Positions 1-10,867 of a DNA stretch of 10,867 bases are shown piece after piece; the first letter of the stretch is position 1; each line of letters opens with the position of its first letter. The translations under genes were made by a program, and so were the position numbers. This DNA comes from a virus. Its lineage: Duplodnaviria; Heunggongvirae; Uroviricota; Caudoviricetes; Autographiviridae. The notes below the pieces were generated by a model that saw only the letters and a program-made list of their open reading frames with translations, ran no database searches and was not told where the DNA came from. The stretch lies in the IMG/VR virus record IMGVR_UViG_2609459797_000001; one strand, 5' to 3'.

Positions 1-377
1 TGGACGAACAGTGGGGCTATGTCGGGGCTAAATCGCGCCAGCGCTGGCTGTTTTACGCGTATGACAGGCTCCGGAAGACGGTTGTTGCGCACGTATTCGG
101 TGAACGCACTATGGCGACGCTGGGGCGTCTTATGAGCCTGCTGTCACCCTTTGACGTGGTGATATGGATGACGGATGGCTGGCCGCTGTATGAATCCCGC
201 CTGAAGGGAAAGCTGCACGTAATCAGCAAGCGATATACGCAGCGAATTGAGCGGCATAACCTGAATCTGAGGCAGCACCTGGCACGGCTGGGACGGAAGT
301 CGCTGTCGTTCTCAAAATCGGTGGAGCTGCATGACAAAGTCATCGGGCATTATCTGAACATAAAACACTATCAATAA
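1..377 (+). CDS. insB: IS1 transposase InsB, C-terminal part (5' end lies outside the window)
   Basis: Open frame from the window start to TAA at 375-377; the listed ORF 111..377 is only the part after an internal Met. Sequence recognised as IS1 InsB from memory. Confidence 0.85.
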
Positions 378-392
378 GTTGGAGTCATTACC
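1..392 (+). mobile_element. IS1 insertion sequence, 3' portion ending at its terminal inverted repeat; truncated by the window edge
   Basis: Frame 3..377 translates to the InsB C-terminal sequence ([21 protein letters not shown]...[15 protein letters not shown]). GTTGGAGTCATTACC at 378-392 matches the IS1 terminal repeat as I remember it, 15 nt after the insB stop. Confidence 0.9.
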
Positions 393-457
393 TGGTGTTC
401 CTTACCTTGCAGCCTTCGGAATAGCAAAATCTATATTAGAGCATTTAGGGATAAAAG

Positions 458-1534
458 ATGAATTTGACAGCAATGAATCTTGTGAATGCGATAGCCAACC
501 TGCCCAAAAACAGGCAGTTTGATTATGTGAATGAAAGTAATGCTGGGAAGATTGTCGTCGACTCGATTAAGTCACCACAAGGCCCGATACGCTTTAAGCG
601 TTTTAACCCGACCAAAGGTGAGACGCTTAAAGATGCAAAAATAGACAGCATCTCTAGCCAGATGCTTTGGCGTTTGGCTAACGCAATTCAAGAGGATGCA
701 CCTATCAATTTAGATAGAGTGCTTGGTGCAAGCTATAACTCCCGTTCCGTTATTGAGAGTTTACTTGCACACACACCGCAATTTTATTGGTGTAAACTCG
801 ACCGTTTAGAAGTTATTAACACTAAACAGACGGTAAAGAAAGGCCACAAGCATCTTGTGTACTTACCCAATTCGCCACACGAAAACGGTAAGCTCTCTGA
901 ATACAAAGCTAATATTGTAATATCAGAGATGAAAACAGAAGTTGTTTATCAAAGTGTTGATCTGGAAACAATCCGTCCAGTTGAAGGTATGTCGATTGAA
1001 GAATCAAGAAGGCATGCACAAATCCAGATTGCTTTAGTAAAAATAGGCCACCACTTAGGCTATAGAACATGGGTGGCAGCTAATGATCGTGGACTTAAAT
1101 ATAACGGGAAAGTCATTGCTCAAATGGATGGGGTAATTGATAGTCTCTCAAATGAAAAGGTATTAAGCTCGTACAGCGAGGCCATTGACGGTGCAAAACT
1201 AATAGATTGCATTTGGTTTAGAAATGGAAAATTAATGCCCGCCGTGATGGAAATTGAGCACAGCACTGGGATTAAAAGCGGATTAATCCGTATGAAGAAT
1301 TTTTGTGACTATGCCCCACGGCTTCAAGATATCAGATGGACAATCGTAGCCCCCGATGAATATCGAGCTAAAGTCATTGAATTTGCGAATATGCCGCAAT
1401 TCCGAGAGCTGGACACAAAATTCTTCCCGTACTCAGCAGTCGAAGAGTTGTATTCTCTTTGTGAACGACGCAAACCACAAGGAATTACAGACCAATTCCT
1501 TAATGCGTTTATGGAAAACTGCGTAACCCACTGA
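458..1534 (+). CDS. Hypothetical protein (358 aa), compositionally foreign; possible nuclease or defence-type protein (inference only)
   Basis: ATG at 458 preceded by AGGGA about 7 nt upstream; uninterrupted 358-codon frame to TGA at 1532-1534. Hand counts on 60-nt samples give about 37-48% GC against a clearly GC-richer surrounding. Convergent with the minus-strand operon. Weak D...E-x-E pattern (LIDCIWF...AVMEIEHS) that could be a PD-(D/E)XK-like core; not verified. Confidence 0.7.
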   Translation: MNLTAMNLVNAIANLPKNRQFDYVNESNAGKIVVDSIKSPQGPIRFKRFNPTKGETLKDAKIDSISSQMLWRLANAIQEDAPINLDRVLGASYNSRSVIESLLAHTPQFYWCKLDRLEVINTKQTVKKGHKHLVYLPNSPHENGKLSEYKANIVISEMKTEVVYQSVDLETIRPVEGMSIEESRRHAQIQIALVKIGHHLGYRTWVAANDRGLKYNGKVIAQMDGVIDSLSNEKVLSSYSEAIDGAKLIDCIWFRNGKLMPAVMEIEHSTGIKSGLIRMKNFCDYAPRLQDIRWTIVAPDEYRAKVIEFANMPQFRELDTKFFPYSAVEELYSLCERRKPQGITDQFLNAFMENCVTH

Positions 1535-1554
1535 CTAGAAGTTAAACATCTTTT

Positions 1555-1576
1555 GTGCCGGGTGCAACCCCGGCAC
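1555..1576. terminator. GC-rich hairpin between convergent genes (8-bp stem GTGCCGGG/CCCGGCAC, 6-nt loop); possible bidirectional terminator, non-canonical
   Basis: Perfect inverted repeat at 1555-1562 and 1569-1576, lying between the stop of the 458-1534 gene and the stop of the 1589-2017 gene. A T-run precedes rather than follows the stem on the plus strand, so there is no classical U-tract in either direction. Confidence 0.3.
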
Positions 1577-1588
1577 AGCCAGAACTCA

Positions 1589-2017
1589 TCACCCCGGATA
1601 AACAACGCCCAGCCCTTGGTTTTGTTGGCGGTAGCTCGCCAGCATCGCGTTCATGTTGCCAGGCGACAGCCCACACAAACGCCCAGCATGGTAGCCACCC
1701 TCAGCAGCGTTAGCAGAACGATGCACCACAGCACGCACGCGCCCGGTTCGGTGGCAATGATCCAGCACGGCAGACGCAAGGCGCAGCGGTTTACCTGTCA
1801 CCGCACAGCGTCGGTATTGATAATTCCACAGGAAGATACGGACAGCGGCCACATCAGCGCGGCGCAACTCCAGCCGACCGGAACCATTCAACAGGAAGCG
1901 ATACACATCTTCGAATACAGCAGCATTTGTAATCCGTTCAGCCAACGGCATGTTGCCGAGGTGTTCCAGATAGTCCCGCATCGCTTTTCTTAGTAGTTGG
2001 TCTGTCCGTGTAACCAT
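1589..2017 (-). CDS. Endonuclease VII-like (phage T4 gp49 family) junction-resolving nuclease
   Basis: Motif LDHCHRTGRVRAVV...ANAAEG matches the remembered endonuclease VII core (HLDHDHE...GKVRGLLCNLCNAAEG). ATG at 2017 with GGAG about 10 nt upstream; last gene of the minus-strand operon. Confidence 0.75.
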   Translation of the reverse strand: MVTRTDQLLRKAMRDYLEHLGNMPLAERITNAAVFEDVYRFLLNGSGRLELRRADVAAVRIFLWNYQYRRCAVTGKPLRLASAVLDHCHRTGRVRAVVHRSANAAEGGYHAGRLCGLSPGNMNAMLASYRQQNQGLGVVYPG

Positions 2018-2289
2018 GATTCAAAGTCTCCATTGTCAGACGCAGCCCGCTTGCAGGCTTCGTATTCTTCGCACTGGCGTTGGCAAACCAGAACATAAAG
2101 TTCATCAGCCATCGCATTAACGCGTTCGTCACTGATACCGTTGCGGCGCATTAGCCCCAGCAGCTTACGAAATTCAGCTTCCAGCTCAGGCTCTCCGGTA
2201 TCCATTACCCACTGTTTCAGGTCAGCGAGTGCGCCAGTCATTGGCGGCGGCTCGATGTACCGCCACCTTAATTTAATCGTGGTTATCAT
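1990..2289 (-). CDS. Hypothetical small phage protein (start uncertain; 2289, 2241 and the TTG at 2337 are alternatives)
   Basis: Minus-strand frame ending TAA at 1990-1992. The listed start at 2337 is a TTG and overlaps the upstream gene by 65 nt; the ATG at 2289 overlaps the upstream stop by 17 nt, which is more typical of coupled genes. Confidence 0.45.
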   Translation of the reverse strand: MITTIKLRWRYIEPPPMTGALADLKQWVMDTGEPELEAEFRKLLGLMRRNGISDERVNAMADELYVLVCQRQCEEYEACKRAASDNGDFESWLHGQTNY

Positions 2290-2698
2290 CTTCTTTATTC
2301 TCTCTGTAAGCCGGGTGCATTGCCCGGTATTGCTCAATGGTCAAACCCTCGCTGGCCGCTGTAAGCCGTTCCTTTTGCTTACCCGCCAATCGCAAGGCGC
2401 TGTCTCTCCAGCAGAGCAGAAAGAAGACGGTCAGCACCTGCTTACTCAAGCCATCCAGAAGATCACCAAGTCCTTGCTCCAGAAGACAGGCACGCCATGC
2501 AGCGGCATGCTCCGTCATAGCGCCGACTATCGGGACAGGTGCGCCAAGCATCGTCGCAAGTTGGCTCATAACACTATTAGCATCGCCCGGATGCAGTCGG
2601 GGCATAGTCATGCGGCCAGCCTGCGCCAACAGTTCAGCGTACCGCTGGCGACGTGGGTCATCATCTGCCAGCGCTCTAATCGGCTTTTCATCAGCCAT
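2273..2698 (-). CDS. Hypothetical phage protein (141 aa)
   Basis: ATG at 2698 with GGAGG 9 nt upstream; lies 18 nt after the stop of the HNH gene; same strand and packing as its neighbours. Confidence 0.7.
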   Translation of the reverse strand: MADEKPIRALADDDPRRQRYAELLAQAGRMTMPRLHPGDANSVMSQLATMLGAPVPIVGAMTEHAAAWRACLLEQGLGDLLDGLSKQVLTVFFLLCWRDSALRLAGKQKERLTAASEGLTIEQYRAMHPAYRENKEDDNHD

Positions 2699-2716
2699 TA
2701 ATGGAACCTCCGGGGA

Positions 2717-3226
2717 TTAGGCAGCCTGCAACAAATCGGCTGGTGTTGAGGGATGGTATCTGGCTTTAGCTTTCAGGTACGCAGCACGTGCCGCCGCTTC
2801 GGATGTGAATAAGCCAAGGTGATGGCGTACACCGTCAACGCGTATGTAAGCCTCCCATTTGCTACAGCCTTTATTCCAGCTATATCCCCTTGCCTTGCGT
2901 CGGTTCTGGTCGTTTTCCCGCTGCGTAACCAAACGCAGATTGCATAGGCGGTTGTCGTCACGGATACCGTTGATGTGATCGATCTGCTTACCGTGAGGAA
3001 TAGCGCCATGCGCAAGAATCCACGCCACGCGATGGGCTTTTAGCTGGTACTGCTTGCCATCAAGTCGCAGGGCAACTTGACGATAGCCATCAGCTCGCCG
3101 GGTGGAGTCAGCATAGGAGCCAGCCTTAACCCGGCGTCGGTTAGCTTTATGGCACAAGCGACCTGTAACCGGGTCATACAGGAAAAGGGATCGCAGCAGC
3201 TCAGGGGCGTAAGCATCATTAACCAT
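2717..3226 (-). CDS. HNH homing-endonuclease-like protein with C-terminal AP2-type DNA-binding domain
   Basis: HNH_3-type motif AHRVAWILAHG...IDHINGIRDDNRLCNLRLVTQREN, followed by an AP2-like segment GYSWNKGCSKWEAYIRVDGVRHHLGLFTSEAAARAAYLKA. ATG at 3226 with GGAGGGG upstream. Confidence 0.85.
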   Translation of the reverse strand: MVNDAYAPELLRSLFLYDPVTGRLCHKANRRRVKAGSYADSTRRADGYRQVALRLDGKQYQLKAHRVAWILAHGAIPHGKQIDHINGIRDDNRLCNLRLVTQRENDQNRRKARGYSWNKGCSKWEAYIRVDGVRHHLGLFTSEAAARAAYLKAKARYHPSTPADLLQAA

Positions 3227-3242
3227 GACTCAGCCCCTCCAG

Positions 3243-4238
3243 TTACGCAGATTGTCGGAAATTGATAACGCAATCAGGACGACGCAGCCCAACGTTGAAC
3301 AGGCGATATGAGTCCATCACCATCGTCATTTCGCGTTCATCATCCCACTGGCGATTAATGACGCTCTGCGCTTCGACCGTCAACAGTACCGAGGAAGGTT
3401 TAAACAGCGTCGCCCTCGTCAGCGCTTCCTCTGCGGTAACGTCATAATCAGCGCCCAGTTCATGCCCGGTAATGGCTTCCTGCGGGTAACTATTCAGCTC
3501 GATAACTCGCACCCCAGCGACATAGCCAACACGACGCCATGCGTAATCGTTGCCACTATCCCGGCTGTAACGGACGTTCATCAGCTTCTTATGTTCCATC
3601 AGGATGCTGAACCAAGCCGGGTCGATAAGCAGTACCAACTCCGCCACCGGAATATCTTTCTCAGTCAGGAATCGATTAACAGCAGCTTTAATAGCGCTAA
3701 CCAGCTCATTCGCGGCGTCTTCTTCGCTCCCCGCTGTCAGGTCGAGCGAGACAACGTTATCCGTCAACGGGTTAAACGTTGGTTGCAGTGTCGGCGGTGG
3801 TACAAAGTCAGTCGCTTTGATTAGCTGGATGGCGTGCGCTTCGTCGTAGAATTTAGCGTGAGCAGTACCGATATTGCGGCTCAGCTCTGCGCGAAAGGTG
3901 GGTGCAGTCCAGTCATCCTGATAGTCAATGGGGATGCGGATATAGCTCAGCGTATCCACAGAGATAACCAACTTGTCCGACTTAACGGCGGTAGGCTCCA
4001 GCGATTGCCCTGCTGTTCTGCCCTTCACCTCCAGATCACCACTCAGGCGATCAATGCGGTATTGGTTGCTGGCTTTCAGCGGCCTGTATGTAGACAGCCT
4101 CTCGGCCAGAAATACGGATTTGGACTCTAAACGGGTCTGGACATCCCGGTCATAAGCCTCGATGTGAATATCATTGTCGGATTCCACCCCGCCATAATGT
4201 GGGCGAAACAGATCGGGACTGTACGAAGTATCAGCCAT
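3243..4238 (-). CDS. Hypothetical 331-aa protein; motif pattern resembles HK97-fold major capsid protein of the T7 gp10 type (unverified)
   Basis: ATG at 4238 with GGAG 8-9 nt upstream. Ungapped, position-matched motif resemblance to T7 gp10 as I remember it: VLIYDIED versus IRIPIDYQDD near residue 100; ALTK...VP...DRVFYCDPDSYSAIL versus RFLTEKDIPVAELVLLIDPAWFSIL near 185-215; NVMGFEVVEVP versus YVAGVRVIELN near 240; KYAMG..GLRPE versus SYRLFNVGLRRPD near the C-terminus. Recall-based, needs profile confirmation. Confidence 0.75.
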   Translation of the reverse strand: MADTSYSPDLFRPHYGGVESDNDIHIEAYDRDVQTRLESKSVFLAERLSTYRPLKASNQYRIDRLSGDLEVKGRTAGQSLEPTAVKSDKLVISVDTLSYIRIPIDYQDDWTAPTFRAELSRNIGTAHAKFYDEAHAIQLIKATDFVPPPTLQPTFNPLTDNVVSLDLTAGSEEDAANELVSAIKAAVNRFLTEKDIPVAELVLLIDPAWFSILMEHKKLMNVRYSRDSGNDYAWRRVGYVAGVRVIELNSYPQEAITGHELGADYDVTAEEALTRATLFKPSSVLLTVEAQSVINRQWDDEREMTMVMDSYRLFNVGLRRPDCVINFRQSA

Positions 4239-4435
4239 AACAAAACTCCTACATATGTTGATGAAGCCCGCGCCATCGTCATGGCACAGACGTGCGTAAT
4301 CCTCCCGCCGAGGCAGGATTCAGAACGGTATCGATTAAAGGGATGAGGTGCCCCGGAATGGGCGTTTTGAGGCCAGAGCTGGCGCGGTTCTCAGGGGTTA
4401 GTGCGCGTAAAGTAAGGCGAAAGTATTACCTTGCA

Positions 4436-4849
4436 TTAGTGCGCACTCATACGCGCCATGTTCAACACCTTCCGCACAGAGGTTTCAGACACACCAACCT
4501 TGCTTGCAATGTAACGATTTTTCTGACCTTTTGCAGAGCGATCGATAATGTCAGCGCGTATCGCCTCAGTGATCACCTTGCGGGGTCTGGCTCGGTTCTT
4601 CTCGTGCCGTTCACGTTCGCGCAGCCTTTCGGCCAACTTCGGCGGTAGTACAGGGGAAAGCCCACGGCTAACGCCAGATGTGCGGGTGCCGGATGTGGCA
4701 GACCGGGCAACGATATAAACCGCTTCGTCTGGATTGAAAACGTGCTGCACACGCTCAGGGTAAATGTGGTCGCATCTACCCAACGGCAAGGCGAAATCCG
4801 GGCGCACGTCAGCGACACGCTCCACAGCATGGAAATTACAGGTACTCAT
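4436..4849 (-). CDS. Hypothetical protein with C-terminal helix-turn-helix and an N-terminal Cys/His cluster
   Basis: ATG at 4849 with GAGG about 7 nt upstream. C-terminus IIDRSAKGQKNRYIASKVGVSETSVRKVLN looks like a resolvase/sigma-region-4-type HTH; N-terminus has C-x2-H...C-x-H (MSTCNFH...RCDH). Confidence 0.65.
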   Translation of the reverse strand: MSTCNFHAVERVADVRPDFALPLGRCDHIYPERVQHVFNPDEAVYIVARSATSGTRTSGVSRGLSPVLPPKLAERLRERERHEKNRARPRKVITEAIRADIIDRSAKGQKNRYIASKVGVSETSVRKVLNMARMSAH

Positions 4850-4988
4850 TACGAACCTCGGTTAATTAAAAACAGGCTTTCAGATGCCGCGCAGAATGCG
4901 GCTTGCGGGGACTCATGCGCATAGATTGGTGTGGTAGTACCGGGTCGGTGCGCACTCGGTCTTGCAGAGCGCATTCCACCGTTGGGCG

Positions 4989-5684
4989 TTAGCGGCCAGC
5001 ACGTTTGCCAGCGGAGCGCTGCGCAACCAGAGCGCGGTATTGTTCATCGTACTGGCGATGGCCGGGGCCATACCCTGATTGCTGCGCCCACTGCGAAAGC
5101 TGGTCATACGCTGCTATAAACTCAGCATGAGACATTCCGACAGGTTGCGCGGTAGACTGGCCGTATGGGTTCCCCTGTGATGGGACATAACCAGTCGCAG
5201 TGCCTGCGGACATCCTCTCTTGCAGGTACTGAACCGCCCGCTGCATCTGCGCAGGGTCGCCAGACATAACCATTCGTTCAAGGGTTGATTGCGTCCCACT
5301 GTCGAGCGTGCCAGCGTACTGTAACATCGCGTCAACTGTTCCCTGTCCGAGCTGGCTTTCAATGGACTGGTGAAACTGCCCCATCAATCCTTGCAGCTCA
5401 GCGGTATACTCGACAGCAGTTCCGTCCATCAGAGGGATAGTATCGCCCACCTGCGCCCCGGCGCTGTCAGCGTTCTGGTCTTGCTGATTAGCAATATTGC
5501 TATTATTCCATTGGCCGCCATCATTACCGTTAACGGGTTGGGTACGGAGGAAATCAGCATCAGCAGGCGCAGAGCTAAAGCGGGATGCCCCATTGTCAGC
5601 TCCAACAGGTGCAGCCATGTATGGCGATTGCTGCGATGCAGCATCAGCGCCAGCAGCGAGATAAGGGTTTTGATTGTCAGCCAT
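4989..5684 (-). CDS. Q/N/G/A-rich low-complexity protein (231 aa), function unknown
   Basis: ATG at 5684 with AGAGG upstream, 2 nt after the stop of the preceding gene. Strongly biased composition (for example NGNDGGQWNNSNIANQQDQN) with a helical-looking C-terminal half. Confidence 0.6.
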   Translation of the reverse strand: MADNQNPYLAAGADAASQQSPYMAAPVGADNGASRFSSAPADADFLRTQPVNGNDGGQWNNSNIANQQDQNADSAGAQVGDTIPLMDGTAVEYTAELQGLMGQFHQSIESQLGQGTVDAMLQYAGTLDSGTQSTLERMVMSGDPAQMQRAVQYLQERMSAGTATGYVPSQGNPYGQSTAQPVGMSHAEFIAAYDQLSQWAQQSGYGPGHRQYDEQYRALVAQRSAGKRAGR

Positions 5685-5686
5685 AA

Positions 5687-5926
5687 TTATGCAACCTCTT
5701 GTGATGTAACTCGGCGGTGCGCCAGTTCAAGTAAAAGCATGTGCGCATGTACGCATCGGGCAGGAATCATCTTCTGTCCGTGGTACGCTTTGCCGAGATC
5801 TTGTCTGTCGATCTGGTACACACGAGCCAAGTCGATTTGACGAAGATTCAAGGCGTCAGCAATGAATTTCAGTTGTTGCCCGCAATCAGCCGCGCGGCGT
5901 GGCTCCATTAAAATGATGGTGCTCAT
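5687..5926 (-). CDS. Small XRE/Cro-like helix-turn-helix protein (start placed at the internal ATG with a good RBS)
   Basis: Segment LKFIADALNLRQIDLARVYQIDRQDLGKAYHGQKMIP has the XRE-type HTH pattern. The ATG at 5926 has GAGG about 9 nt upstream, whereas the listed start at 5968 overlaps the upstream gene. Confidence 0.55.
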   Translation of the reverse strand: MSTIILMEPRRAADCGQQLKFIADALNLRQIDLARVYQIDRQDLGKAYHGQKMIPARCVHAHMLLLELAHRRVTSQEVA

Positions 5927-5940
5927 GAAATAATCCTCAG

Positions 5941-6171
5941 TTAAATAAGCCCGTGACGGCGTAGCCAACGGCGCTCGCCAGCGGAGCCACGCGGACGCTG
6001 GCGGCGTCCACGGGCGGTGACTGGCTGTTCGGGTGCGGCCTCACTTCGGAGATTCTGCGTCAGGATGTCCCACCCCTGCGGCTTAACAGGGGCGTAGCCT
6101 TCCCGCATCTCGTCAAGGTTGACGTATTGAGTCGGGTCAATTGCAGGGTGAATGATGTCGTTATCTTCCAT
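5941..6171 (-). CDS. Hypothetical small protein with Arg-rich C-terminus
   Basis: The ATG at 6169-6171 overlaps the upstream TGA stop (6171-6173) by one base in a TGATG arrangement, indicating translational coupling; stop TAA at 5941-5943. The listed start at 6186 would overlap by 16 nt. Confidence 0.45.
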   Translation of the reverse strand: MEDNDIIHPAIDPTQYVNLDEMREGYAPVKPQGWDILTQNLRSEAAPEQPVTARGRRQRPRGSAGERRWLRRHGLI

Positions 6172-6749
6172 CACTCGGCTCCCCATTTCGCATTAACATT
6201 TTCCAGAATGTCACCATACGGCCAGCGGCTCTTTAAGCAGCGGTTAACGAAAGCGATCACCTCTGGCAGAACGTCCAGCTTTTGGGCGATGTCAGCGACA
6301 GGCCAGCCAAAGCGCTCTAACTTGTGGATTTCATCCAAATCAGAAGGCACCAGCTTGCGCATGGCTTTCGCTTTCTCCGGCTTCACTTTAACGGCTTTCG
6401 GCGCAGGGTGAGTGTGGGCGTTCTGGAATCTGGAATGAGCGATAGCCAGCACGGTTTCAGGGCGAATCAGCGTATCGCGGGCAATCATAAATTCCGTATC
6501 ACGGTGCAGCTTGCCGGGCTTATAGCGGCTGCGGATGGCGTTGTATTCAGCCAGAGTAATATCAGCATCGTCTTTCCACTGTTCGGCCAAGTCATCGACA
6601 TAGACGCCACGGATTACACGGTCGATGTCGCTCGGGCTGAAACCAGTGCGAGAAGAGATTTCATCGTTGTTCAGGTGGTCAACAATACTCAGTTTATTGA
6701 TAAGCTGAATATCGCGCAGGGTCAGGGTTGCGTTACTGGTGGTTGTCAT
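6171..6749 (-). CDS. Hypothetical protein (about 192 aa) with HTH-like segments; possible DNA-binding protein
   Basis: The ATG at 6749 has GGAGAG 9-10 nt upstream; the listed start at 6767 is a TTG. HTH-like stretches near both termini (ATLTLRDIQLINKLSIVDHL and VADIAQKLDVLPEVIAFV). Confidence 0.65.
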   Translation of the reverse strand: MTTTSNATLTLRDIQLINKLSIVDHLNNDEISSRTGFSPSDIDRVIRGVYVDDLAEQWKDDADITLAEYNAIRSRYKPGKLHRDTEFMIARDTLIRPETVLAIAHSRFQNAHTHPAPKAVKVKPEKAKAMRKLVPSDLDEIHKLERFGWPVADIAQKLDVLPEVIAFVNRCLKSRWPYGDILENVNAKWGAE

Positions 6750-6924
6750 ACTGGAACTCTCCATCAAAGTTAATCGAATCTTCTACAAGGTCTTTAATCA
6801 AAGCGAGGCTGGATGCGGTATGGATACCACCGCCGCGCCGGGCGTTGTCGTACATGGCTTTGGCCTGCTTCTGGTACTTCTCAGGCAGCGAGTTAAACCA
6901 CGCTCTAAACTGGTGCGGCGTCAT
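6733..6924 (-). CDS. Hypothetical small protein (63 aa)
   Basis: ATG at 6922-6924 overlaps the upstream TGA (6921-6923) in an ATGA-type junction; GGAGG about 11 nt upstream. Confidence 0.5.
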   Translation of the reverse strand: MTPHQFRAWFNSLPEKYQKQAKAMYDNARRGGGIHTASSLALIKDLVEDSINFDGEFQYDNHQ

Positions 6925-7130
6925 TCGTTGTCATCCTCCGGGAACACGTTATTGAAAGATGCGTCCGGCGCATCGGCGGCATTTTGCTTGAGGAAGTTCA
7001 CGCAGGATGACAGCTCGGCAGCAGCCATGCGGGATTCTCCAGCGGAGTCCTCTTTCAGGCGGCGGGTCAGCGCCTCCAGCAACAGGCACCGCATATCCCA
7101 TGTCCCAGCTTCAAACTCGGTTTTGGTCAT
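6921..7130 (-). CDS. Hypothetical small protein (69 aa)
   Basis: ATG at 7128-7130 overlaps the upstream TAA (7130-7132) in a TAATG junction; same operon and strand. Confidence 0.5.
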   Translation of the reverse strand: MTKTEFEAGTWDMRCLLLEALTRRLKEDSAGESRMAAAELSSCVNFLKQNAADAPDASFNNVFPEDDNE

Positions 7131-7561
7131 TAATGGTTATCTCCAACTGGTAACAGGCCAAGCGCCCGGATGTGCTGTATCACTTCTTGATGCACGGGCT
7201 TCGGCAGAAATAAACGGCGGGCAATGGCGGCGTAAACTTCATCAGGTGTCTTGCGCACTGGATGCACTCGACCATTAAAAACCCGCTCAGACAGGCGGAC
7301 AGCTTTCCAGCAACGTGAGCCATCCGGCCTTTTCATGCGGTTCAGCACAGCGGCCAGACACTCCCACGGTTCGCAATCATTCAAAAGGCAATATCGCTCC
7401 AGCGGCGTGGACACCTCGCGAAGGATGGCCTCCCGGTTAAGGGTCTTGCGATGACGTTCGGCCAACCCATCAAATGAATACCCGTTCAGGGCGTAAGCGA
7501 GCTGCGCATTAATCAGGGCGTCAGAACGCCCCGCGCGTTGCTGCACGGTTTCATCAGGCAT
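7130..7561 (-). CDS. Hypothetical phage protein (143 aa)
   Basis: ATG at 7561 with GGAG 8 nt upstream; 43 nt downstream of the helicase stop. Confidence 0.7.
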   Translation of the reverse strand: MPDETVQQRAGRSDALINAQLAYALNGYSFDGLAERHRKTLNREAILREVSTPLERYCLLNDCEPWECLAAVLNRMKRPDGSRCWKAVRLSERVFNGRVHPVRKTPDEVYAAIARRLFLPKPVHQEVIQHIRALGLLPVGDNH

Positions 7562-7604
7562 GTGGATTCTCCAGAGAGGAAATTAAACAGGCGAGCCAGT
7601 TAGC

Positions 7605-9449
7605 TCAGAGGAAGCGGGAGATGTAACCCCAGTTAGCATTGTGGGGCTGGTACAACGCCGCCAAATCATCAGGCGCATCCCCCAGCGCCAACGATGACCA
7701 GAGTATGAAAGCACGGGCAGGTTGACCATCGCGCCCGGCACGGCCAACCATTTGCACCAAATCGGGCAGGTCTTCCGGAACATAAGTGACAATTACGTTA
7801 CGCACGTCAGAAATATCGGCTCCGAGGCCAAAGGCTTTGGTCGCCACCAGAACAGCGCCGGGCGTGCTGGAGAACCACTCTGCGTTGGCGTGCCGCTGAT
7901 CGCGGCTCAGTCGCTCAACGTCAGAATGATAAGGCCGGGCACGGTCTCCCAGTTCGTTGAGATACGCATACAGCATCTTTATGCTGTCCACCATCACCAA
8001 TGTCTTTTCATTCTCCGGCAGCGCATTGACCAGACCAACGGCAGCCCGGCGCGGAGTTACGCATTGCTGAGCAGGAATAAGCTGGATGTTTTCACGGGCA
8101 GCACTGGCGCGGTAGGTGAGGAACTCGCCACGACAGCCAAGCTCTTTCATCAAGCCAGACTCATCACCTTTTCGCAGGGTCGCAGTAAACGCGCACCGCT
8201 GAGCATCCGGGAAGGCATTTTGCAGGGTGTGCTTCATTGCAGGGAAAGCGTCCCGGAACTCCCATTCATCAACGGTGTGCACCTCGTCAATGATAAATCT
8301 GTCCGCACCAGCGGCCATCAGCGCGGCAAGCACCTGACTACCCGGCACCAGATGTTCAGGCGAAACGACTGCGACGCGGAAAGCACCAGCAGCCAACCCC
8401 GCAAGTTGCTGCGCATTACGCCGCTTCGGTAGTTTATCGCCAAATGCCACAGCGTGAACGCCAGCCTCCCTTAACTGCTGTAGCACCTGCTGCTTGATAG
8501 TGTTCGTCGGCACGACAATAACGGTCATACCTTCGCCAGCATCAGACTCAAATTGCAGGGCATAGGTGAATGCAGCCGTCTTTCCGTACCCGGTCGGCAG
8601 TACGGCCAACATATCGCGGTCACGGGCAAACACAGCGGCGGCCACGTCGAGTTGACCGGGTCGCCAGTCATGACCATCTGGCGGCGGTAACGGTACGAAT
8701 GCCGGGCGGTCGCATTGCTCCAGCTCACGGAACCTGTACGGCGCTGTAACCAGCGGCGGGATGGACGGCGGCAGGTCAGCGCCGCCAACGTCACAGTGTT
8801 GGTTCTTCGTGTTGAAATTGTCCTTAGTGGATTTCAGCTCACTGCCCCATAGCTGGTGAAACTCCGGGCTATCCCCGAGGGTGTCAAAGTCAGCGTGGCG
8901 CATCGCCTCCAGCTTGCTCATGCCACGATTGATGCGGCGGATGGTCTTCTCATCACAAATCAGAAACTCGCGACAGGCTTTAAGAAAGGCGTTTTGCCCC
9001 GTGGTCGCTTCCGGGATGGCGTGCTCACGCGGTTTCAATGCGGCATCGTCTACGCGAACACCGGGGAAATCTGGTGGCAGCGGCTCGGCGTACCGGGCAG
9101 GCTTTTTGTTTAGCCACATCACCAGCTCAGCGCGGCGGCAGTGGATTGCATCGCCCGGCTGGATAATCTGGCGCAACCCTGCATCAGCGCGGCGGGCGTG
9201 TGTCTTGCGTCCGATTCCGTTAGCCTCTTTCCATTCTCGGAACGACATAACAGAATCGTCAGCGTTAAAGTAAAACTCTTGTGACTCCGTATTAAACGCA
9301 GCCTGTATGGGTTTACGCTTTACAGGACATTGCTTGTTACGCGATACAACTATCTTATCCGCAACCAGTTGCTGAGCATCCGCAGGCGCAGTGTTCAGCG
9401 GTTCGGCGTCAGCGGCCAGCGCAAGCAGGCGGTTCAATCTCGTGGGCAT
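7605..9449 (-). CDS. SF2 DExH/RecQ-like helicase (614 aa) with a roughly 270-aa non-helicase N-terminal extension
   Basis: Helicase motifs in order: LPTGYGKT (motif I), VVPTNT (Ia), DEVH (II), FTAT (III), VGRAGRDGQ (VI). ATG at 9449 with GGAG 9 nt upstream. Confidence 0.9.
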   Translation of the reverse strand: MPTRLNRLLALAADAEPLNTAPADAQQLVADKIVVSRNKQCPVKRKPIQAAFNTESQEFYFNADDSVMSFREWKEANGIGRKTHARRADAGLRQIIQPGDAIHCRRAELVMWLNKKPARYAEPLPPDFPGVRVDDAALKPREHAIPEATTGQNAFLKACREFLICDEKTIRRINRGMSKLEAMRHADFDTLGDSPEFHQLWGSELKSTKDNFNTKNQHCDVGGADLPPSIPPLVTAPYRFRELEQCDRPAFVPLPPPDGHDWRPGQLDVAAAVFARDRDMLAVLPTGYGKTAAFTYALQFESDAGEGMTVIVVPTNTIKQQVLQQLREAGVHAVAFGDKLPKRRNAQQLAGLAAGAFRVAVVSPEHLVPGSQVLAALMAAGADRFIIDEVHTVDEWEFRDAFPAMKHTLQNAFPDAQRCAFTATLRKGDESGLMKELGCRGEFLTYRASAARENIQLIPAQQCVTPRRAAVGLVNALPENEKTLVMVDSIKMLYAYLNELGDRARPYHSDVERLSRDQRHANAEWFSSTPGAVLVATKAFGLGADISDVRNVIVTYVPEDLPDLVQMVGRAGRDGQPARAFILWSSLALGDAPDDLAALYQPHNANWGYISRFL

Positions 9450-9472
9450 GTTTGAAATCTCCAGTCAAATAA

Positions 9473-9775
9473 TCAAGCAGCTTTCCGCCAGATGTATCGG
9501 CGGTGGACACCTCTCTTTTTGGTCACGCCGTGCAGCTTTCGCCATGCGCGGAAGGTCATAACGGAACCATCGGGATTGTAGTAATACACACGCAGACGTT
9601 TGTGGAATGCTCCCTGTACCGTCTTGTCCGTGACAGCGCAGCGCACGTAATGCGGGATAACAGTTTCACTCCAGACCAGTTGTTGCGGCGTGGCGCTAAT
9701 CGTGCTTAACGCTTCGGCGGCAGCGGTTGCCAGCTCCAGTTGCAGGCGTGAATTCATGTGGCGTAAATCAACCAT
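9473..9775 (-). CDS. Small protein (100 aa) paralogous to the N-terminal ~90 residues of the downstream helicase
   Basis: ATG at 9775 with GGAG about 8 nt upstream. Ungapped alignment to helicase residues ~3-92: QQLV, C-x-V, K, Q-AF, Y-N-D-SVM-FR-W, G, K, RR all in register. Confidence 0.7.
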   Translation of the reverse strand: MVDLRHMNSRLQLELATAAAEALSTISATPQQLVWSETVIPHYVRCAVTDKTVQGAFHKRLRVYYYNPDGSVMTFRAWRKLHGVTKKRGVHRRYIWRKAA

Positions 9776-9818
9776 GATGTAAGCTCCAGAAATTAAGGTG
9801 AGTTTAGAACGGGGCGCA

Positions 9819-9875
9819 GGACGGAAGCGCCGGAAGTGTGGCGGTGGCGGTTGAGGCGGCGTCGGTGTTCCGTCC
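9819..9875. other. GC-rich interrupted hairpin (stem GGACGGAA/TTCCGTCC around a 41-nt GGCGG-repeat loop) in the operon leader
   Basis: Perfect 8-bp inverted repeat at 9819-9826 and 9868-9875, with an inner CGCCG/CGGCG pair and three GGCGG repeats in the loop; lies 45-100 nt upstream of the first start codon of the minus-strand operon. Confidence 0.3.
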
Positions 9876-10123
9876 CTCTTTAGTAGTGATCTTCATCCAG
9901 TGATTTGGATTTAACTCAGGCGCAACAGGCAATGCAGCGGGATAGCGCGAGGGCGGGCTTGTGGTCTCATCTTCCCACAGTAGTAACCCTTATCGGTCGG
10001 TAGCCTTCCCAATATAGTAGCTTTCAAGTCAAGAATTCTATCCGGGGCTTGCCTTCCCTTTGTAGTCACTTTCATCCACGCATACCCCGGACAGCCCTTG
10101 TGGCGTCTGGTGCGACAGGCAAT
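9876..10123. repeat. Iteron-like imperfect direct repeats in the noncoding region upstream of the helicase operon
   Basis: CTCTTTAGTAGTGATCTTCATCCA (9876-9899) versus CCCTTTGTAGTCACTTTCATCCA (10056-10078); GGCGCAACAGGCAAT (9919-9933) versus GGTGCGACAGGCAAT (10109-10123); CTTGTGG twice; CAATATAG twice; TAGTAG-type hexamers four times. Confidence 0.4.
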
Positions 10124-10252
10124 TTCAGGTAGGTGTATTAGGGATGTGAAATTGGTTCTTGGCGTAGCTCTTTCCTACAATATAGACACTTTTAAATTTA
10201 TTAATAAATGCAGTCAGTTAAACGGTTATCTTTATTACCTATAACTTTCACA

Positions 10253-10274
10253 GATCAATAGATTAAAATTGATC
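10253..10274. promoter_or_regulatory. Palindromic operator-like site GATCAAT-N8-ATTGATC containing two GATC (Dam) sites
   Basis: Perfect 7-bp inverted repeat with an 8-bp AT-rich spacer, located just upstream of the promoter-like hexamers. Confidence 0.35.
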
Positions 10275-10287
10275 GGAATTATCAGCT

Positions 10288-10325
10288 TTAAATTTCTTGA
10301 CAGCTATTTGTATAATGGTTTTAAG
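10288..10325 (+). promoter_or_regulatory. Rightward sigma70-like promoter candidate (overlapping alternatives)
   Basis: Perfect TATAAT at 10311-10316 with TTAAAT 17 bp upstream (10288-10293); alternatively perfect TTGACA at 10297-10302 with TTTAAG 17 bp downstream (10320-10325). AT-rich upstream region. Confidence 0.35.
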
Positions 10326-10329
10326 AAGT

Positions 10330-10470
10330 TGTATCGGAGTGAGCGACTGGCAGTGAGCGTAGCGAACGGTAAGCCAGTCGGCGAAGAACGAAGAGTATGA
10401 GATGACTTGTCATCGAATACGATGAGTGATTGAGCGCTACGAACGAAGATACGCTGTATAACAGTTAGAA
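10330..10470 (+). other. Hairpin-rich untranslated segment downstream of the promoter candidate; possible small RNA or leader, interrupted by IS1
   Basis: No ORF longer than a few codons. 8-bp stem CGACTGGC/GCCAGTCG (10344-10351 and 10373-10380); two mutually exclusive hairpins sharing TCATC (GATGA-CTTG-TCATC at 10401-10414 and CATCG-AATA-CGATG at 10411-10424); GAACGAAGA repeated at 10386-10394 and 10441-10449. Confidence 0.2.
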
Positions 10471-10527
10471 CAGTTAACTAGCTGAATATGAATAATACAT
10501 TTAATATTTATCTGGATTAGTATTTTC

Positions 10528-10867
10528 GGTGATGCTGCCAACTTACTGATTTAGTGTATGATGGTGTTTTTGAGGTGCTCCAGTGGCTTCTGTTTCTATC
10601 AGCTGTCCCTCCTGTTCAGCTACTGACGGGGTGGTGCGTAACGGCAAAAGCACCGCCGGACATCAGCGCTATCTCTGCTCTCACTGCCGTAAAACATGGC
10701 AACTGCAGTTCACTTACACCGCTTCTCAACCCGGTACGCACCAGAAAATCATTGATATGGCCATGAATGGCGTTGGATGCCGGGCAACAGCCCGCATTAT
10801 GGGCGTTGGCCTCAACACGATTTTACGTCACTTAAAAAACTCAGGCCGCAGTCGGTAACCTCGCGCA
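10528..10867 (+). mobile_element. IS1 insertion sequence, 5' portion (left terminal repeat and insA); continues beyond the window
   Basis: GGTGATGCTGCCAACTTACTGAT at 10528 onward matches the IS1 end repeat as I remember it; insA starts 55 nt inside, as in IS1. Same orientation as the IS1 fragment at 1-392. Confidence 0.9.
10583..10858 (+). CDS. insA: IS1 InsA (91 aa)
   Basis: Translation [43 protein letters not shown]...LKNSGRSR recognised as IS1 InsA from memory; complete ORF with stop at 10856-10858. Confidence 0.9.

Follow-up and report, generated by a model that had tools for sequence, protein, structure and literature searches.

A restriction endonuclease gene of the NmeDI family, probably stranded by an IS1 insertion in its methyltransferase partner, in a satellite-like island of Escherichia coli

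The virus record IMGVR_UViG_2609459797_000001 of IMG/VR, classified in the Autographiviridae, provides the stretch of 10,867 nucleotides analysed here (the window), which carries at 458..1534, on the plus strand, an intact ATG-to-stop open reading frame (ORF) for a protein of 358 aa. We call this gene, and its product, R. Our analysis indicates that R is very likely the endonuclease of a Type II restriction-modification (R-M) system of the NmeDI type, whose methyltransferase gene (M) has been cut by the insertion sequence IS1, leaving R stranded and probably silent. An earlier note on this DNA had tentatively read the same gene as a foreign cargo gene for a nuclease acting as a single-gene defence determinant; the nuclease and the cargo parts of that interpretation stand, and the single-gene part does not.

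The protein, which the earlier note could not place in any family, is matched by the PADLOC profile PDLC03534 REase_II ("Type II restriction enzyme") with an E value of 1.3e-122, residues 2-356 aligning to positions 5-350 of the 351 in the profile. Exactly this 358-aa protein, found on at least 24 public contigs, also carries the precomputed Pfam annotation PF27126 NmeDI_C, and the same domain was present in each of the listed homologues of R (120/120). The names given to the homologues by their sources are mostly "restriction endonuclease", "type II restriction enzyme" or "R.NmeDIP", with some "hypothetical protein", the latter being the RefSeq label for the copies of R in E. coli N9 and ARS-C101. 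One homologue that is 55% identical to R (P0118) is called "type II restriction enzyme NmeDIP" in both NCBI and UniRef, and it is this name, together with that of the family, that links R, indirectly, to the Neisseria enzyme NmeDI, the relatives so named being about 55% identical to R. By sequence, R falls in an established, curated family whose prototype has been characterised, and it already bears the name restriction endonuclease in several sources.

An exhaustive search with R returned 838 cluster representatives at E <= 0.001, about 60 of them strong and many of these near full-length, while many relatives among the 838 match residues ~170-355 only and differ in their N-termini. These partial matches suggest that an NmeDI_C-type cleavage module has been shuffled among different recognition domains. 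Other searches were negative. A local Pfam-A scan of the protein found no family at E values up to 10, PF27126 being newer than the Pfam copy used; the sequence search of the PDB gave no match, and neither did a tblastn search of 50,697 phage records or a megablast search of plasmids with the R gene. The C-terminal nuclease domain alone (residues ~170-355, window 965-1522) occurs on 163 plasmids at 28-36% identity, some of the proteins being annotated 'type II restriction endonuclease'. Two candidates were set aside: the NCBIfam family RuvX, whose score for R was below threshold (E 0.046, 13.7 bits against a cut-off of 155) and is noise, and the 351-aa representative P0139, tried as the true R.NmeDI, whose cluster consists of one unnamed member.

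The AlphaFold model of R (mean pLDDT 89.3) consists of two domains separated by a disordered linker of low confidence (aa 157-175). The N-terminal one (aa 1 to ~150; 458..907, plus strand) forms a separate, confidently modelled domain and is presumed to recognise DNA. The C-terminal one (aa 176-358; 983..1531, plus strand), which is the NmeDI_C region, has the topology alpha-beta-beta-beta-alpha-beta that defines a PD-(D/E)XK core. The putative catalytic motif, D250 (LIDCIWF) followed by E265-I-E267 (MEIEHS), lies at 1205..1258 on the plus strand, and its acidic residues occupy the positions expected for such a core, with D250 just ahead of the strand 251-255, E265 on the next strand (259-266) and E267 directly after it. 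In an alignment of 39 homologues reaching down to 27% identity, E100, H141 and D250 were invariant, and E265, E267, T270, G275, R278, H186, Q190 and D210 were each conserved in at least 90%. Both the D...E-x-E arrangement and the PD-(D/E)XK-type core that the earlier note had tentatively read from the sequence are therefore borne out, and by conservation and model together D250, E265 and E267 are probably the catalytic residues. A Glu in place of the Lys at the third motif position is a known variant, as in BamHI.

A Foldseek comparison of the model, one of the checks that the earlier note had proposed, gave no significant match in the PDB, the best being the nickase Nt.BspD6I (E 0.027, probability 0.96); the model nonetheless presents the C-terminal domain as a PD-(D/E)XK-type nuclease closest to the cleavage modules of Type IIS enzymes. 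In sequence, R has no detectable similarity to the cleavage domains of the FokI and BspD6I type (6-7% identity). It also differs from them in its motif, D...E-x-E and not the D...D-x-K of FokI, and in its expected mode of action, a palindromic site cut on both sides.

The earlier note had seen neither a methyltransferase nor any other partner gene next to R, but the end of one is there. Positions 394..522 (plus strand) hold the last 42 codons of a C5-cytosine methyltransferase gene together with its stop; this remnant begins midway through motif X, between GN and GVP, and overlaps the start of R by 65 nt in a different frame. Its translation, GVPYLAAFGIAKSILEHLGIKDEFDSNESCECDSQPAQKQAV followed by the stop, agrees residue for residue with the C-terminal end of the intact M (379 aa) in the related locus L008. 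The L008 protein matches PF00145 (E 7.6e-53), and its motifs align with those of M.HaeIII and M.HhaI, its GNGVP standing opposite the GNAVP of M.HaeIII. All that survives of the window copy beyond IS1 is the GVP of motif X with the C-terminal tail; the full motif set of a C5-methyltransferase (I, IV with PC, VI with ENV, VIII, IX and X in one polypeptide) is missing from it, and the window encodes no functional methyltransferase.

What precedes the remnant is the 3' part of an IS1 copy (1..392, plus strand), in which the ORF 111..377 is the C-terminus of InsB and the terminal inverted repeat, ending in AAGTTGGAGTCATTACC, has its last base at 392. The segment 240-416 is about 96% identical to the 'IS1-like element IS1A family transposase' of thousands of E. 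coli records. Because the homology of the window to IS1-free loci begins exactly at 393 and 394-522 equals the C-terminus of M, the IS1 lies inside motif X of M. This junction was found in 0 of 5426 complete E. coli genomes and 0 of 100,044 species-representative genomes, and the insertion is therefore private and recent. The contig of L012, which begins 145 bp upstream of R, was considered as a sibling of the junction and rejected, since it breaks inside M and carries no IS1.

The absence of the junction from every other genome searched could also mean that it is an assembly artefact, a mis-join through a repeat, and that the source strain has intact M and R; both ends of the window lie inside IS1 copies, and contigs typically end in this way when they break in repeats. 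We give this explanation very little probability. The junction coincides precisely with the terminal repeat of IS1, which a true insertion would give and a mis-join would not be expected to, and 392 bp of IS1 are contiguous with unique sequence.

In the relatives, M and R go together. Both in E. coli N9 and in ARS-C101 a 1140-bp "DNA cytosine methyltransferase" gene precedes the R homologue and overlaps it by 65 bp, and 9/10 of the loci shown with an identical R have an intact, overlapping PF00145 gene upstream, the tenth ending at a contig edge inside M. In the distant relatives from Roseobacter, Marinifilum and Serratia symbiotica the overlap is 53-89 bp, and homologues of M and of R were found together in the same organisms; the names of the M homologues give no recognition sequence. 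The order typical of NmeDI, a C5-methyltransferase gene upstream on the same strand with its 3' end over the start of R, is thus present in the relatives, and the window locus is incomplete through IS1. The two genes are also alike in composition (GC 0.427 for M, 0.414 for R) and form a single AT-rich module.

This pairing bears directly on the proposal that R is a self-sufficient defence nuclease, whether methylation-dependent (Type IV/IIM), Shedu-like or of the abortive-infection kind, that never needed a methyltransferase. R does stand alone in the window with a nuclease motif, and in other strains the same place in the island holds the single-gene candidates AbiTii and a YafO toxin. PADLOC, however, gave REase_II only, and none of its Shedu, Abi or Type IV models matched even when E values up to 10 were admitted; every complete homologous locus examined has the overlapping C5-methyltransferase, the window itself retains the remnant of one, and R.NmeDI, the relative that has been characterised, acts on unmethylated DNA and could be cloned only when its methylase was there too. 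The claim of the earlier note is in this respect largely refuted already, and we regard it as extremely improbable.

The module is also found elsewhere. In Serratia symbiotica (L016/L017, 2908-5074) a 64%-identical M and R pair sits in a P2-like prophage between a Phage_GPA replication gene and the portal and terminase genes, a position known as a defence hotspot of P2-like phages; because of this location, the module moves among different kinds of mobile element. ARS-C101 (L002, 4990-9295) has a diverged M and R, its R being 86% identical in nucleotides, upstream of a transposase pseudogene and the island integrase. This pair lies outside the cargo slot of the island described below, which in this strain holds AbiTii, and it may be the remnant of a second, tandem island.

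The prototype, R.NmeDI of Neisseria meningitidis, is a protein of 351 aa whose gene overlaps the 3' end of the cognate C5-methyltransferase gene in the same orientation (Kwiatek & Piekarowicz 2007, PMC2095814). It acts as a tetramer that requires two sites and cuts (12/7)RCCGGY(7/12), on both sides outside the site, releasing 25 bp (PMC2095814). It cleaves unmethylated DNA, could be cloned only with M supplied in trans, restricted lambda-vir 1000-fold in E. coli, and is without significant sequence homology to Cfr10I or BsrFI (PMC2095814). By PF27126 and the source names R belongs to the same family, and the two proteins are of similar length (358 and 351 aa); the M-then-R order on one strand, the overlap and the C5-methyltransferase partner are the same. 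The overlap is nine codons in NmeDI and 65 nt (~21 codons) in the E. coli system. The latter, unlike the system of the Neisseria host, is cargo on a satellite-like island, and in the window its M is destroyed by IS1. No gene for a Vsr-type mismatch endonuclease was seen among the called neighbours of the E. coli loci; the Neisseria system has such an associated enzyme, V.NmeDI. The CCGG-family enzymes of Type IIP/IIF (Cfr10I, Bse634I, NgoMIV, SgrAI, AgeI and BsaWI) cut within their site, in contrast to NmeDI, which cuts outside it on both sides.

From these likenesses we propose the following mechanism. In the intact system M (379 aa) lies directly upstream of R in the same orientation, with the overlap of 65 nt, and the pair rides as AT-rich cargo in the slot between the integrase and an endonuclease VII-like gene of the island. 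By homology with R.NmeDI, the N-terminal domain of R would bind unmethylated RCCGGY, and the FokI-like C-terminal PD-(D/E)XK domain (D250, E265, E267) would cleave some way outside the site, to either side of it, R probably acting as a tetramer that bridges two sites while M would protect the host DNA. In the window, the entry of IS1 into motif X has removed the protective half of the system, with 42 codons of M left, and R, most likely no longer expressed, would be a stranded gene heading for decay.

The RCCGGY content of the DNA is consistent with this recognition site. The whole window contains 57 CCGG and 0 RCCGGY, where shuffles lead one to expect 13.4 +/- 3.7 matches; the island part has 53 CCGG, which divide into 0 RCCGGY, 14 YCCGGR and 39 mixed. 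The absence of RCCGGY from the island would be expected if R recognised the same sequence as NmeDI. In the host flanks of related loci, on the first count, 25 of 101 CCGG were RCCGGY, that is 25 sites in 23.6 kb or about 1 per kb.

Two observations weigh against reading this absence as proof of the specificity of R. Ten related islands, from the loci L001-L010, L018 and L019, have 0-2 RCCGGY each, including three that lack this R-M system. The island is also poor in 6-bp palindromes in general, with 70 sites against 179 +/- 14 in simulations and 34/64 of the palindromes absent against 9.5 +/- 2.3 simulated. Because palindrome depletion is general and sister islands are equally depleted, only the non-palindromic pair ACCGGC/GCCGGT keeps a specific signal: it makes up 0/53 of the CCGG in the island against 18/85 in the re-pooled host flanks, and the other non-palindromic NCCGGN classes are not depleted. 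This signal in the sequence is consistent with RCCGGY specificity and is no proof of it. As a whole, the island avoids restriction sites to an extent more usual in phages.

R itself is in perfect condition. Compared with L008 it differs by 1 nt, a synonymous change, and by 0 aa, and it has 0 aa differences from the R of L003; its pN/pS is 0.014 against N9 and 0.058 against ARS-C101. These comparisons point to strong purifying selection on R among the diverged alleles and to a decay that has not begun. Since the protein is still identical to alleles in intact systems, the insertion is very recent. Decaying R-M systems disrupted by insertion sequences are alike in that one gene of the pair is hit and a partial system is left. 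In the window M is destroyed and R fully intact, the potentially lethal direction, which requires silencing or protection in trans: with a host density of about 1 RCCGGY per kb, an expressed R without M should be lethal.

Several points favour silencing. A promoter scan found no plus-strand sigma-70-like site in window 1-458, and in the intact L008 the single sigma-70-like site is upstream of M. IS1 insertions are classically polar. Because RCCGGY occurs in the host at normal density and the only promoter-like signal lies upstream of M, with IS1 in between, R is probably unexpressed, and that it is silent, stranded by a recent insertion, seems to us most likely. On the other side, the promoter scans are weak evidence, with counts at or below chance, and this counts against the silencing part of our interpretation. 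A terminator-like hairpin, CTGCCCAAAAACAGGCAG followed by TTTGATTATG, is found at 500-517, at the end of the M frame and within the first 20 codons of R, and is kept in L008; it could set the M:R expression ratio. Such hairpins do not exceed in number what chance would give here (3 found, 2.1 expected).

It could be, alternatively, that R is still expressed and active and that the chromosome is protected by another methyltransferase covering RCCGGY, either a second island copy of M or a solitary CCGG-type C5-methyltransferase, so that R would still be a working restriction barrier despite the local loss of M. The perfect intactness of R and its identity to the alleles of complete systems would fit this, but a very recent insertion, 1 nt away from L008, explains them equally well. 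Extra PF00145 genes occur near the island in some relatives (L006), and one assembly has the M and R pair on two contigs (L003, L011); in the window, however, a second methyltransferase is not visible. The crude promoter scans leave room for a weak internal or IS1-derived promoter, although they found no plus-strand promoter-like site upstream of R. We judge protection in trans to be unlikely, though it is the main alternative.

A bolder idea is that the orphaned R is still active, and either tolerated or even put to use: were it expressed only on induction of the island, it could serve, without any methylase, as a weapon against the DNA of the helper phage or of the host. As the island is without any RCCGGY site, it would be intrinsically immune to its own enzyme whatever the methylation. 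If this were true, an R-M system would have given rise to a role of R in abortive infection or interference, and the loss of RCCGGY and of half of the 6-bp palindromes would mark a satellite lineage unusually shaped by restriction pressure. We put this forward as a speculation of very low probability.

Returning to the stranded and silent R that we favour, its surroundings agree with its being part of a cargo module. R is the sole plus-strand gene between the two IS1 ends, the remaining real genes being on the minus strand, and it is AT-richer than its neighbours (GC 0.414, GC3 0.398, against 0.53-0.58 for the endonuclease VII-like, HNH, capsid and helicase genes). Its start codon is 65 bp past the IS1 terminal repeat, and its stop at 1534 converges on the end, at 1589, of the endonuclease VII-like gene (1589..2017, minus strand; PF02945, E 2.8e-6; phrog_423 endonuclease VII, E 7e-16). 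On isolation, composition, IS1 neighbourhood and convergence the earlier note was accurate. Its conclusion that R is recently acquired cargo applies to the M and R module; IS1 was not the vehicle and is a later intruder.

From 393 to 10527 the window is collinear with L008, at 95.2% identity. The intact strains have in order an integrase, a cargo slot, a minus-strand operon and a resolvase, and the end of the element adjoins a tRNA-Leu beside ahr and yjgR. The variable slot (window 393-1588; L001 4856-7197; L018 3868-4898; L019 7912-8736; L002, from ARS-C101, 9296-10326) runs from the integrase to the endonuclease VII-like gene, which borders it in all related islands. It holds M and R in N9 and L003-L010 and, in otherwise collinear islands, an AbiTii-domain protein in E2348/69 and ARS-C101 and a YafO-family toxin in EC09.

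The phage-like operon, satellite-like in content, occupies the minus strand between 1589 and about 9775 and closes with the endonuclease VII-like gene. It further encodes an HNH endonuclease, a major head protein (phrog_267, E 6e-69), a DEAD-box helicase and about nine unknown proteins; terminase, portal and protease were not recognised among its products. This gene set is unusual for a phage satellite. The segment 9776-10527 is poor in ORFs, with a GC content down to 0.37-0.38 over about 10050-10500; it corresponds to the gap between helicase and resolvase of related islands, is ~76% conserved with N9, L005 and L012, and may be a regulatory or replication-origin region. An Rfam scan of the window found nothing.

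The collinearity with L008 ends at 10527, where the 5' part of a second IS1 copy begins (10528..10867, plus strand), in the same orientation as the first, with the left repeat GGTGATGCTGCCAACTTACTGAT and an InsA-like ORF at 10583..10858. This right copy lies ~750 bp before the position of the resolvase gene of L008. The two same-orientation copies (1-392 and 10528-10867) bracket a 10.1-kb segment of the island and form a composite-transposon-like unit or a substrate for IS1-IS1 deletion. The left copy, the sole one compared, is only ~96% identical to the IS1A of E. coli.

The solitary look of R is thus the result of an ordinary decay event, the destruction of M by IS1, and not a new single-gene defence. 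More generally, a lone AT-rich nuclease gene beside an insertion sequence need not be a new defence system, and the evidence for the lost partner, here a remnant of 129 nt, is easily overlooked. The finding adds an uncharacterised E. coli enzyme to NmeDI, a small family in which a palindromic site is cleaved to either side, and shows this family as exchangeable cargo of a satellite-island slot, beside AbiTii and YafO-type cargo. The unusual direction of the decay, with the methylase lost and the endonuclease intact, raises the question of how the cell survives, and the island, with RCCGGY missing throughout, is a clear case of a phage satellite avoiding restriction sites.
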